In this document: in pieces, positions 61,319 through 64,000 of the stretch
Layout: each line of letters starts with the position of its first letter
How positions within the stretch are numbered: the first letter of the stretch is position 1
Virus record (IMG/VR): IMGVR_UViG_3300032213_001813
Location: 64,001 to 128,000 of that record
Strand: one strand, 5' to 3'
DNA length: 64,000 nt
Source: a virus
Notes under the pieces: generated by a model
What the model was told of the DNA's origin: nothing
What the model saw: only the letters and a program-made list of their open reading frames with translations
Databases searched by the model: none
Program-made: the position numbers and the translations under genes

Positions 61319-61777
61319 ATGAAAAAATTAATGTTATTGTTTGTAATGTTATTCGGAATGAGTATCGTTGCAAACGCACAAGAGTGGTTTATTACCGCTA
61401 CCCGTAAGGGTGGACCATCGGATGGTTATATTACCGGTGGATATATGAAAAAAGGTTGGGGTTTCTTCGCTGGACTTCCTTATACTGAAATTAAAGACCA
61501 AAACTCAAGCGGAATTGTACTTCCTCCGGGAGTAAACACTTCAACTGGAACAATCTCTTCCAATATGAAGTTTGGTGTTTTAAGACAATTGAAAGAAGAT
61601 AAGGCAATTGTAGGATTTGGTATCCAACCAACCGCAGGTGGAAACAAACCGAATGCATTTTTAATGTACAACCCATTAAGACCAGGTAGCACACTTAATT
61701 TGTGGACAATTGGTAACTTAGTAGGTAGTGATTTCACATTAGGATTGGGTTTATCTTACAAAATAGGAAAGAAGTAA
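61319..61777 (+). CDS. secreted / outer-membrane beta-barrel-like protein
   Basis: Signal peptide ending ANAQ, alternating strands, terminal GLGLSYKI. Confidence 0.6.
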   Translation: MKKLMLLFVMLFGMSIVANAQEWFITATRKGGPSDGYITGGYMKKGWGFFAGLPYTEIKDQNSSGIVLPPGVNTSTGTISSNMKFGVLRQLKEDKAIVGFGIQPTAGGNKPNAFLMYNPLRPGSTLNLWTIGNLVGSDFTLGLGLSYKIGKK

Positions 61778-61794
61778 AAAAAGATTAAGAAACG

Positions 61795-61826
61795 TTTGGA
61801 TTTATCAAAAAGATTTCGTATCTTTG
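61795..61826 (+). promoter_or_regulatory. Bacteroidota-type promoter for tRNA-Met
   Basis: TTTG-N20-TATCTTTG. Confidence 0.8.
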
Positions 61827-61862
61827 TAAACGATAAAGAAAAACGTTTCTTTTTTTATACAT

Positions 61863-61934
61863 CGCGGGGAGGTTGTTGGTCACCCACCGGTCTCATAAGC
61901 CAGGTTTACGGCAGTTCGATTCTGTCCCCCGTTA
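61863..61934 (+). tRNA. tRNA-Met(CAT), initiator-like
   Basis: CGCGGGG acceptor with 1:72 mismatch, loop CTCATAA, TTCGATT T-loop; no encoded CCA. Confidence 0.8.
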
Positions 61935-61965
61935 CTAAAAAATATTTTGAAAATAATTTACAAAA

Positions 61966-62000
61966 TATTAGGAAATACGAAAAAAGTTTCGTATCTTTGA
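61966..62000 (+). repeat. 35-bp promoter repeat, copy 1
   Basis: TATTAGGAAATACGAAAAAAGTTTCGTATCTTTGA; contains TTAG-N20-TATCTTTG. Confidence 0.9.
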
Positions 62001-62013
62001 AAAACAAATTAGG

Positions 62014-62095
62014 AAATGGTTGAAGCCAACATCTAATAAAACCGAATGTGTGAAGTCCAACCATAAGTGGTAAACTATAAAGCCGGATACCATTT
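62014..62095 (+). ncRNA. candidate small structured RNA (82 nt)
   Basis: Own promoter; closed by AAATGGT/ACCATTT; internal ACAT/ATGT, GTCC/GGAT and ACCA-TAAG-TGGT helices. Confidence 0.45.
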
Positions 62096-62122
62096 ACTAA
62101 TTTGAAAAAATAATTAAGAAAT

Positions 62123-62157
62123 TATTAGGAAATACGAAAAAAGTTTCGTATCTTTGA
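62123..62157 (+). repeat. 35-bp promoter repeat, copy 2
   Basis: Identical to 61966-62000. Confidence 0.9.
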
Positions 62158-62174
62158 TAAACAATAAAGAAAAA

Positions 62175-62185
62175 GTTCTTTGAAA
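62175..62185 (+). promoter_or_regulatory. boxA-like antitermination site
   Basis: GTTCTTTGAAA just after the promoter. Confidence 0.55.
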
Positions 62186-62189
62186 GATA

Positions 62190-63035
62190 TTAGAGTACAT
62201 AGTGAACTTGTTTCACATAGTATTCAATCGGCCGCTTATGGTCGTGAAATAAACTACGAAAGTAGGATAAAGTGAATCATTTGGTTAAGTGGTTTGCGGC
62301 TTTGTAAGGAGCTTGAGTAGGCAAGTGGAATATCATTTCACCTTTAGTATTGAGGGTAACACTGTAAAGAGGGTGGTGAGATGACTGGGCTAATGTAGAT
62401 AGTTCGGTTGAGGTAGGGATATCAATAAGAATAATCCATAGAGTTATTGTAAGAAGTAAGGACTTAATCTCTCCTTATCATTGCGTGATTCAATATTAGA
62501 GTAATCTTAAAACCGAAAGGTAAGATAAAGTACAGGTGGTGCTGTTATTATCCTTACTCTTCACCTACCAAGGTAGGAGTTATGAAGATGACTTGAAATA
62601 TGGTGTTAGGGATAACACATCGAGTAGTTCAGTATTTCCTCGTTCAAAAGGTGGGGAAGCTGATGGGTGGACCACTACTTGAATAAATCTACAACCAAAA
62701 CTCAATTTGCTATATGGTGCAAACTTAAACAAAAAGAGCAAAAGTGTCCATCAGTTACGAACGAAAGGTGCGTACATAGTAGGGAGTTGTTCCTTGCCAC
62801 AAACATCCGCAAGATGAATGTGATTCTTTTGAAAAATTTCTAACACCGCAAGTGTGAGTTTGCTCGGCAGAGTAGAAGAAACGGATTAGGGAGAGAGTAG
62901 TTTGTAACTTTATGAGTGGTTGGCATTACTAACCCGCATTGAATCGGTACTACTCAAAAGGTAGTGGAAACGAAACTAAAACATAAGGTTTCTAAAGCTG
63001 GTTCGCTTACGTGAGTATTCTCATCCGTAACCACT
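62190..63035 (+). ncRNA. large structured ncRNA, GOLLD-like
   Basis: About 840 nt without ORF, GC-elevated, many GNRA-capped hairpins, flanked by tRNAs; boundaries approximate. Confidence 0.65.
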
Positions 63036-63039
63036 AAAA

Positions 63040-63109
63040 GCGGTATTAGTGTAAAGGTAGCACGCTCTGCATCCGTAGAGAAGTTGGGGTTCGATTCCTT
63101 AGTTCCGCT
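63040..63109 (+). tRNA. tRNA-Gly-like, degenerate anticodon loop (possible pseudo-tRNA)
   Basis: GCGG acceptor, U73, D and T arms present; loop CATCCG is only 6 nt. Confidence 0.55.
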
Positions 63110-63114
63110 CACAA

Positions 63115-63185
63115 GCGGTGGAAGTGTTACGGTAGCACATTGGCCGTCCAGGTCGAAGGAGGTGGTTCAATTCCATCCCACCGCT
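63115..63185 (+). tRNA. tRNA-Gly(TCC) with G33
   Basis: GCGGTGG/CCACCGC, U73, loop CGTCCAG. Confidence 0.7.
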
Positions 63186-63316
63186 CTACAACGTGAGTTG
63201 TTTTCATATCTTGATTTTTATTACATTGTGAAGTGGGAGATTTCGGTCTCCCATAACACTAAAGATGTGGAATAACCGAAAAAACAAATAGTACATACTT
63301 ATATAAAAGAAATAGA

Positions 63317-63451
63317 ATGAAAACTCTTAACCTACATACACCCAATTATCAACCGGCAACGAATATGTTGTGGGCTGGGATTAGTGTGTGTGATTTTAAT
63401 TCGAAGAGAATTGAACTAAAGTTAAGGGTACAAAATGTAGAAGTGGAATAA
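63317..63451 (+). CDS. 44-aa leader-like peptide
   Basis: MKTLNLHTPNYQPATNMLWAGISVCDFNSKRIELKLRVQNVEVE; preceded by TACTTATA, followed by terminator. Confidence 0.45.
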   Translation: MKTLNLHTPNYQPATNMLWAGISVCDFNSKRIELKLRVQNVEVE

Positions 63452-63476
63452 CCAAACTACATATAAAGGTTAAAAG

Positions 63477-63519
63477 ACCCCTAACTGAAATCAAAATCGG
63501 TTAGGGGTTTTTTGTTTTT
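63477..63519 (+). terminator. intrinsic terminator before the tRNA array
   Basis: ACCCCTAACTGA/TCGGTTAGGGGT hairpin plus long T tail. Confidence 0.85.
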
Positions 63520-63521
63520 AA

Positions 63522-63593
63522 GGGGTGGTAGCTCAGAGGCAGAGCAGATGACTGTTAATCATCAGGTCGAGATATCGTAATTCTCCCTCCCCT
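63522..63593 (+). tRNA. tRNA-Asn(GTT), atypical T-loop
   Basis: Loop CTGTTAA; T-loop ATCGTAA. Confidence 0.8.
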
Positions 63594-63600
63594 CAATATA

Positions 63601-63612
63601 GTTCTTTGACAT
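63601..63612 (+). promoter_or_regulatory. boxA-like antitermination site
   Basis: GTTCTTTGACAT. Confidence 0.6.
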
Positions 63613-63624
63613 CGTGGTAAAAAT

Positions 63625-63697
63625 AGTGGGTTAGCTCAATTGGCAGAGCGCCGTCTTTACATGGCGGATGTTGGGGGTTCAAATCCCTCACTCACTA
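63625..63697 (+). tRNA. tRNA-Val(TAC)
   Basis: Full cloverleaf, loop TTTACAT. Confidence 0.9.
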
Positions 63698-63705
63698 CAT
63701 TAAAT

Positions 63706-63778
63706 GCTCTTGTAGACAAAAGGTAAAGTCATCGGTCTTAGACACCGAGTTTTATAGGTTCGAATCCTATCAGGAGTA
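63706..63778 (+). tRNA. tRNA-Leu(TAG) with short variable loop
   Basis: Loop CTTAGAC, 5-nt variable region, A73. Confidence 0.8.
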
Positions 63779-63816
63779 CAGGTAGTTCCCGATGCTACAT
63801 ATCAAAATCGGAATAG

Positions 63817-63890
63817 GGAGTGGTGGCAGATGAGGTTCATTGCGTTGGACTGAAAATCCAGAGGAACAGGTTCGATACCTGTCCGCTCCA
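63817..63890 (+). tRNA. tRNA-Phe(GAA)
   Basis: Loop CTGAAAA, TTCGATA T-loop. Confidence 0.88.
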
Positions 63891-63895
63891 CTAAC

Positions 63896-63968
63896 GAACT
63901 CGTAGCTCAATTGGTAGAGCACTACACTTTTAATGTAGGGGTTTTGGGTTCGATTCCCAACGGGTTCA
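63896..63968 (+). tRNA. tRNA-Lys(TTT)
   Basis: Canonical cloverleaf, loop CTTTTAA. Confidence 0.93.
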
Positions 63969-63974
63969 CAATAT

Positions 63975-64000
63975 AGGGTGGTATATCAATGGTTAGATTA
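63975..64000 (+). tRNA. 5' part of another tRNA, truncated by the window edge
   Basis: AGGGTGGTATATCAATGGTTAGA acceptor plus D-arm-like start. Confidence 0.5.

Follow-up and report, generated by a model that had tools for sequence, protein, structure and literature searches.

A full-length GOLLD RNA at the head of a phage tRNA gene array, with a boxA-like motif in its leader

GOLLD RNAs were reportedly described in 2009 by Weinberg and colleagues, in a Lactobacillus brevis prophage and in transfer RNA (tRNA) arrays of Mycobacterium. The RNAs from these two groups belong to the same Rfam family, have tRNA clusters as neighbours, and are linked to phages or mobile elements, and the mycobacterial RNA is detectably expressed (PMC6582537). 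Another member, env-38 (JCVI_SCAF_1096627009515/1239-410; its sequence is printed in Supplementary Table 4 of PMC12286853), was found by cryo-electron microscopy (cryo-EM) to form a nanocage of 14 copies with D7 symmetry (Kretsch et al. 2025, PMC12286853). The same study reported that GOLLD cages assemble without protein, are thermostable, and are expressed during lysis, and that the linker of env-38 is disordered and lies inside the cage (PMC12286853). ROOL (RF03087), which is also a large phage RNA found near tRNA islands, forms an RNA-only nanocage of 8 copies (PMC12286853). Here we describe a 64,000-nucleotide (nt) stretch of phage DNA, bases 64001-128000 of the IMG/VR virus record IMGVR_UViG_3300032213_001813 (188,016 bp, estimated to be ~97% complete). 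We call the whole stretch the window, and coordinates refer to it unless they are marked as genome coordinates. We put the probability at about 0.9 that 62228-63027 on its + strand is the gene for a complete GOLLD RNA (RF02032) of the two-domain env-38 type.

The GOLLD model of Rfam matches 62620-63027 (+ strand) with 288.7 bits (E = 1.8e-81; Rfam 15 scan of the whole window), and the alignment covers model positions 1-416 of 416 and is not truncated. For comparison, the gathering score of RF02032 is 150 bits. A first-pass annotation, made from the letters alone, had proposed GOLLD by size and context, which this match bears out; its fallback, a new class of large non-coding RNA in case the Rfam models failed, no longer applies. 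The conserved unit is 800 nt long, which matches the ~800-nt size of GOLLD RNAs that have a structured 5' domain preceding the conserved 3' domain. Its parts are as follows.

62228-62619, + strand: GOLLD 5' domain, collinear with env-38 and with covarying helices; the cap in the env-38 cage
62620-63027, + strand: GOLLD 3' domain, the universally conserved half, matched by RF02032; the ring in the env-38 cage
62683-62745, + strand: variable A-rich linker from the first 3'-domain hairpin to the remainder, unpaired and poorly conserved both in the Rfam alignment and in the alignment of relatives

Since the Rfam model is limited to the 3' half of GOLLD, we tested the 5' ~390 nt separately. By eye, the window copy and env-38 are collinear over their full length, from ATGGCCGC (62228) to GTATTCTCAGCCT (63027). 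Both begin with (A/U)NGGCCGC and end with GUAUUCUCANCC, and they share the 5' motifs AAAUAAA..GAAA..GGAUAAAGUG, GAGGGUAAC, and CAAUAAGAAUAAC along with the whole 3' domain. Both also lie downstream of a tRNA-Met-type gene, and the loops that are reported to make the bridge contacts between subunits are kept. In this by-eye comparison, the window copy is ~30 nt shorter than env-38. An exact env-38 motif was present in none of the loci that we fetched, and none of these is env-38 itself.

The same RNA is present in two deposited megaphage genomes, the "Mahaphage" genomes LR745206 (634 kb) and LR756502 (642 kb) of Al-Shayeb et al. 2020 (PMC7162821). We found these by using BLAST against deposited phages; the similarity begins at ~62230, which is inside the 5' half, and both copies exceed the Rfam gathering score (287 bits for LR745206 and 275 bits for LR756502). 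They have the same type of 5' domain and are adjacent to tRNAs, but they are only 61% identical to the window copy and have an extra hairpin following the ACCA-loop helix. The GOLLD RNAs of L. brevis and Mycobacterium are from other host phyla, and their 5' regions are described as less conserved than their 3' regions (we compared these by description). Furthermore, some members of that group contain a tRNA or pseudo-tRNA within the linker, whereas ARAGORN found no tRNA inside the linker of the window copy.

The sole argument for a new class of large structured RNA with no relation to GOLLD is that the 5' 390 nt fall outside the Rfam match. Because the score of the 3' half is nearly double the GOLLD cut-off, and because the 5' half can be aligned base by base to the 5' domain of env-38 and also to those of two megaphage GOLLDs that themselves pass the Rfam threshold, we consider a new class to be extremely improbable. 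The 3' Rfam match, together with the collinearity and covariation of the 5' half, implies a GOLLD that is full-length and of the same type as env-38, which makes this an ordinary addition to an established family.

To obtain more relatives, we scanned IMG/VR twice and filtered the results with nhmmer, which gave 32 loci with this RNA, of which 28 are distinct full-length copies; they are 61-99% identical to the window copy. (The first scan, with the 14-mer CAGGTGGTGCTGTT, returned at least 120 stretches, mostly by chance; nhmmer identified 15 real GOLLD loci among them.) Individual loci are named below as L076 and so on. For 62228-62619, RNAalifold predicted 18 helices with 110 pairs from 15 sequences, and compensatory changes are seen in 68 of these pairs. 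In this 5'-domain structure, 96.9% of cells are paired, as compared to 37-42% when the partners on the 3' side are slid by 1-3 columns; none of 500 shuffles gave so high a value. An exact-match scan of 185,579 species genomes with a 19-base motif from the 5' domain gave 5 chance matches, with no GOLLD and no prophage host, which is not evidence of absence. When folded by itself, the window sequence is modestly better than shuffles (z = -2.99); the Rfam match and the covariation are stronger evidence than this.

Other identities fare no better than a new class. The longest open reading frame (ORF) that touches 62190-63035 has 58 codons' worth of protein (58 amino acids), and the GC content is 0.37-0.42 in this stretch versus 0.28-0.32 just upstream, so the absence of a long ORF and the raised GC content had been described correctly in the first-pass annotation. 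Across the relatives, substitutions preserve base pairs and not codons, which also argues against a disguised coding region. ROOL would have been a natural candidate because it too is found close to the tRNA arrays of phages and has a similar length (PMC12286853). However, its sequence and fold are unrelated, and RF03087 matched nothing, either in the window or across the full 188-kb record. (Controls were also silent in the scan of the record, so the scan of the window is the stronger test.) A match to an intron or to a ribosomal RNA (rRNA) fragment had been named in the first-pass annotation as what would speak against GOLLD; a permissive Rfam scan of 61700-63600 (E up to 5) returned, beyond GOLLD, tRNAs only, with no intron or rRNA model. 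We give almost no weight to ROOL, an intron, an rRNA fragment, or a coding region.

All six hairpins that had been read from the single sequence are present at the positions given, among them CTAC-GAAA-GTAG at 62254-62265, CATC-CGCAA-GATG at 62804-62816, ACAC-CGCAA-GTGT at 62843-62855, and TCAAAAG loops at 62644-62650 and 62954-62960. Two others need to be amended in light of the relatives. The core ACC-GAAA-GGT is present (62512-62521) and its inner ACC/GGT stem stands, but the proposed outer pairing of ATCTTA with TAAGAT is not kept in relatives; 62505-62508 pair at long range with 62585-62588 instead. Similarly, the sequence CCTAC-CAAG-GTAGG is present (62564-62577) and the hairpin is in the right place, but the comparison favours the register NNNU-ACCA-ANNN (62563-62574) over a CAAG loop.

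We also searched 29 distinct sequences for long-range pairings, which we required to be stacked, compensating pairs. (An unfiltered all-against-all covariation scan was swamped by clade structure, and only stacks with compensatory change were retained.) Four long-range pairings were found beyond the nested helices. For each, we list how often it is paired in the 29 sequences and the range when one side is slid.

62395-62400 with 62687-62692, + strand: loop GUAGAU of the 5' domain with AUCUAC at the start of the linker; 98.8% paired, 23-43% slid
62666-62672 with 62746-62752, + strand: GGUGGAC in a bulge of the first 3'-domain hairpin with GUCCAUC; 100% paired, 15-50% slid
62738-62739 with 62809-62810, + strand: GC at the end of the linker with GC in the loop of the hairpin CAUC-CGCAA-GAUG (62804-62816); paired in 29 of 29, 3-59% slid
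62767-62772 with 62935-62940, + strand: GGUGCG with CGCAUU, a pseudoknot that crosses the 3' domain's long-range helix; 99.4% paired, 17-44% slid

The two sides of the first pairing switch jointly, with haplotypes GUAGAU/AUCUAC, GUGGGU/AUCCAC, GCAGGU/AUCUGC, and ACCGGU/AUCGGU. The second pairing closes the linker, and 6 of its 7 pairs have compensatory changes. In the pseudoknot, 62771-62936 is CG in 9 sequences, AU in 8, and UA in 12, while 62772-62935 is GC in 15 and CG in 14. A candidate partner for the variable AGUUGU loop at 62785-62790, namely 62296-62301, was 96% paired, but the partner bases are invariant G with no covariation, and we do not claim this pairing.

The third pairing has pair types CG/GC/AU and GC/UA, and its loop:partner haplotypes are CGCAA:GC, CCCAA:GG, CUCAA:GA, and CGAAA:UC. 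It is most likely the published L20-J13/15 contact (bridge B7), as judged by mapping the names from the text of PMC12286853. That contact was predicted by covariation, and in the cryo-EM structure it is actually a bridge between subunits (PMC12286853). The hairpin ACAC-CGCAA-GUGU (62843-62855, + strand) has a self-complementary GC in its loop and is probably the published L21a, again by our mapping of the names. L21a makes a symmetric kissing contact (bridge B8) for which a switch between GC and CG palindromes was reported (PMC12286853). Among the relatives, the loop is CGCAA in 22, GUCGA in 3, CGCAG in 3, and CGCGA in 1, and the CGCAA and GUCGA forms show the same switch. That the sequences of the contact loops are kept lends support to the idea that this copy would assemble like env-38, but is not proof of it.

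Could the gene be a relic that derives from GOLLD and no longer functions? Decay of the island is conceivable, as a tRNA look-alike upstream and two Gly-like tRNAs downstream (both described below) appear to be degenerate. But all helices in the two domains of this copy are intact, and its alignment to the Rfam model is untruncated. Furthermore, an independent 207-kb contig contains a copy that is 98.9% identical, and more distant relatives (61-87% identical) keep the pairs by compensatory changes. A relic is therefore very unlikely.

The features of the leader, along with a second copy of its main motif, are as follows.

62107-62173, + strand: third copy of a 67-nt promoter-bearing repeat, with a -7 box TATCTTTG at 62149-62156
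62175-62183, + strand: boxA-like element GTTCTTTGA, 18 bases past the third -7 box
62193-62225, + strand: leader hairpin GAGUAC...GUAUUC with inner stem GUGAA/UUCAC, from a single-sequence fold prediction; outside the GOLLD core
63601-63609, + strand: second boxA-like GTTCTTTGA, in the gap between tRNA-Asn and tRNA-Val, just past a terminator-like hairpin

The 67-nt repeat has three direct copies (at 61777, 61950, and 62107) that are 66-88% alike; each contains TTTCGTATCTTTG and each precedes one RNA gene. In Bacteroidota, the consensus for the -7 box of promoters is TAnnTTTG, which we take TTTCGTATCTTTG to fit. The box TTTCGTATMTTTR is also found upstream of GOLLD in L076, L103, L134, L145, and L123. 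Sigma-70-like sites are scarce in 61700-64000 (1 found versus 6 expected). Transcription would start at about 62160-62165, and 62160-62227 is a promoter-proximal leader that is outside the conserved RNA.

In 31 relatives, the motif GTTCTTTRA is found no more than ~150 nt upstream of the GOLLD core. L002 lacks the motif, and 2 relatives have no recognisable core start for scanning; in LR756502, there is no GTTCTTTRA in the 200 nt upstream of GOLLD. Across 306.7 kb of oriented loci, the motif occurs 73 times on the GOLLD strand versus 12 times on the opposite strand, and 60 of the 73 are directly upstream of stable-RNA genes (31 GOLLD, 27 tRNA, and 2 transfer-messenger RNA (tmRNA) genes). This phage has three + strand copies that are non-coding: one precedes GOLLD, one precedes the tmRNA by 14 nt, and one falls within the 30 nt that separate tRNA-Asn from tRNA-Val. 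Published consensus sequences for boxA are GYTCTTTAANA (PMC5725501) and TGTTCTTTAACA (PMC2666751). Many copies of the motif fit one of these: GTTCTTTAAAA or GTTCTTTAACA from the relatives fit GYTCTTTAANA, and GTTCTTTGA from the window resembles both consensus sequences. Given these similarities, it seems reasonably likely that the element is a boxA that loads the host's Nus complex, which in rRNA operons keeps transcription from ending prematurely and is believed to act as a chaperone for folding (PMC10250234).

Alternatively, GTTCTTTRA might be a phage-specific promoter element, or an RNA-processing signal of stable-RNA genes, and have nothing to do with Nus factors. The motif ends in TTTG, as does the -7 box of Bacteroidota; it is only 20 nt from the GOLLD core in some relatives; and before the tmRNA, it starts 5 nt past the -7 box. 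Also, we read it as a boxA from published consensuses and not from the boxA of Bacteroidota rRNA operons. However, most loci have a separate and canonical TAnnTTTG box 18-22 nt upstream of the motif, and the 30-nt gap between tRNA-Asn and tRNA-Val leaves too little room for a promoter. Since many copies also fit GYTCTTTAANA exactly (PMC5725501), this explanation is on the unlikely side, and we prefer boxA. A literature search for boxA in Bacteroidetes found nothing. We also searched two Bacillota drafts, which were reached via chance matches, for GTTCTTTGA in rRNA leaders; these assemblies have no 16S genes, and the locus with two motifs holds no Rfam family.

Members of the nearest subclade (L103, L124, L125, L134, L141, L151, L136, and L143) have a leader hairpin that is similar to the one at 62193-62225 and is flanked by ACATAGT on each side. 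The env-38 construct did not include the leader hairpin, which is possibly a processing site. As a separate observation, in L124, L125, L135, L140, L141, L143, L151, and L053 (and L076), there is a covarying hairpin with a conserved loop ATAGGTGATGAAAGATACTCGGT between the promoter and the boxA-like motif, which is a boxB-like position. This hairpin is absent from the window.

The leader has the same order as the leaders of rRNA operons: a promoter, boxA (here a boxA-like motif), leader helices, and a structured RNA, with tRNAs downstream. The likeness is of layout only, and unlike in rRNA operons, no leader-trailer helix was found flanking GOLLD. We found no paper in the searchable literature that discusses GOLLD together with boxA or antitermination, and this layout is apparently absent from that literature.

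Downstream of GOLLD, the window contains the following features.

63040-63110 and 63115-63186, + strand: two Gly-tRNA-like genes, found by ARAGORN (Rfam tRNA scores of 33.3 and 42.4 bits)
63471-63519, + strand: the first terminator-like hairpin and T run downstream of GOLLD, with an 18-pair stem that includes 6 GC pairs

The first Gly-tRNA-like gene begins just 12 nt past the 3' end of GOLLD. A Gly-like tRNA lies within ~20 nt of the end of GOLLD in 8 loci (the window, L138, L136, L153, L125, L140, L151, and L141), and other tRNAs abut the end of GOLLD in L034 and L002. Because a Gly-tRNA-like gene abuts the 3' end in 8 loci, ribonuclease P (RNase P) probably releases or trims the 3' end of GOLLD. 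The Gly-tRNA-like genes at 63040-63186 have odd anticodon loops, one of which was read by ARAGORN as a 2-base anticodon ("tc"), and ARAGORN misses 3 of the 8 GOLLD-abutting Gly-like tRNAs. The 285-nt spacer (63187-63470, + strand) between these tRNAs and the terminator-like hairpin contains AGAWGTGGAATAACCRAA twice (at 63263 and 63439) and an ATG-initiated ORF of 44 amino acids (63317-63451). tRNA-Asn starts at 63522, directly past the hairpin. In total, 23 tRNA-type genes lie downstream of GOLLD (genome 127040-132505), which places GOLLD at the head of the phage's tRNA gene array.

Several points weigh against reading this locus as a gene for an env-38-like cage that is transcribed together with its neighbours. 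The window copy lacks the extra GAAA-capped hairpin of the GGGGAAACCCC type that is found in env-38, L076, and L103 (at the place of L11a in the published structure). Cage formation was shown for env-38 only, and the window copy is linked to it by sequence homology. Some relatives have non-palindromic or different loops at the contact sites. We infer the ends of the transcript, its co-transcription with the tRNA-like genes, and its processing, and the strong hairpin at 63471-63514 may end the transcript ahead of the main tRNA array. Finally, the reading as boxA is based on similarity to consensuses that come from Proteobacteria.

The first-pass annotation described the RNA as lying between tRNA genes. 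This holds for the downstream side, with tRNAs from 63040 onwards, but not for the upstream side, where we instead found a degenerate look-alike of an initiator tRNA. This look-alike (61863-61934, + strand) has a CAU anticodon and its own copy of the promoter repeat. Its acceptor stem and T arm are good, but its D arm and anticodon stem are broken; ARAGORN does not call it, and its Rfam tRNA score is 17 bits. Among the relatives, a tRNA with the hallmarks of an initiator (a C1xA72 mismatch and a GGG/CCC anticodon stem) is the nearest RNA gene called upstream of GOLLD in 18 loci, and in 6 further loci the nearest is a tmRNA. In several relatives, the tmRNA lies directly upstream of a cassette of initiator tRNA, small RNA, and GOLLD. 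In this phage, the tmRNA is outside the window (genome 37460-37839; Rfam 100 bits) and its tag ends in ...DYAVAA. Upstream of it are, in order, TATATTTG, five bases, and the boxA-like GTTCTTTAA (genome 37446).

Between the initiator look-alike and GOLLD, we noticed an uncatalogued RNA of ~100 nt (62005-62104, + strand), also with its own copy of the promoter. No Rfam family matched it, even with E values of up to 10. Its closing stem, which is long and covaries (CAAAUUAG/CUAAUUUG plus AAAUGGU/ACCAUUU), surrounds a nearly invariant core: UGAAGCCAACAWCUAAUAAAACCGAWUGUGUGA, a variable hairpin, and AAAGCCGGA. An exact 23-mer from this RNA, GAAGCCAACANCTAATAAAACCG, occurs in 32 IMG/VR loci, and 19 of these have a same-strand GOLLD 150-600 nt downstream of it. 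No GOLLD was seen in the remaining 13 loci; several T4-like contigs have GAAGCCAACANCTAATAAAACCG directly before a RecA/UvsX-like gene.

All of the large ORFs in the window are on the + strand, and several of them have matches among phage families, such as a tail protein and glycosyltransferases. Some relatives have tmRNA tags that end in NYALAA or NYAIAA, and such tag ends are typical of Bacteroidota. The genomes of the megaphage relatives are predicted to infect Bacteroidetes (PMC7162821). Given the predicted hosts of its megaphage kin and the tmRNA tags of its relatives, the host of this phage is probably a member of the Bacteroidota.

How might this RNA be made? We think it fairly likely that transcription would run from the Bacteroidota-type promoter through the boxA-like element and the leader hairpin. 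With a layout like that of an rRNA operon, the host's Nus antitermination complex would probably be loaded, which could help the long RNA to be finished and to fold. Transcription would probably continue into the two Gly-tRNA-like genes, and a cut by RNase P at the first of these would plausibly set the 3' end of GOLLD. By analogy to env-38, 14 copies are then likely to assemble, without protein, into a hollow cage via loop-loop contacts; we are more confident of this than of the preceding steps.

As to what the cage does, encapsulation of tRNAs, ribosomes, or other cargo has been proposed (PMC12286853). Because GOLLD sits in an island of translation RNAs only, our tentative guess, by association, is that it is a translation-linked scaffold or container that acts on tRNA-like RNAs or ribosomes while the phage takes over the cell. 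A more specific proposal, which we consider speculative and rather unlikely to hold as a whole, is that GOLLD is one unit of a conserved phage island of stable RNAs, whose units are headed by boxA-like motifs. The order of the island would be the tmRNA, the initiator-type tRNA, the ~100-nt RNA, GOLLD, the non-decoding look-alikes of Gly-tRNA, and the full tRNA array. Host antitermination would make and fold the cage, and the cage would act on the RNAs next to it; for instance, it might hold or deliver those with the shape of a tRNA. What the evidence shows is that the synteny of the island and the motif are conserved, and a physical or functional link is not part of that.

Assigning this RNA to its family matters little by itself, as GOLLD has been known since 2009 and a cryo-EM structure exists. 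But the family's structural model, env-38, derives from an anonymous marine scaffold. Clear kin of env-38 are now found in at least 32 phage contigs with Bacteroidota-type promoters, among them contigs that span 100-290 kb and two megaphages larger than 630 kb, and this points to hosts in which the function of GOLLD could be tested. The conserved order of promoter, boxA-like motif, GOLLD, and abutting tRNA-like gene offers handles on how the RNA is made. The wider order, from tmRNA, initiator tRNA, and small RNA to GOLLD and the tRNA array, argues that the function of GOLLD lies with the RNAs of translation.

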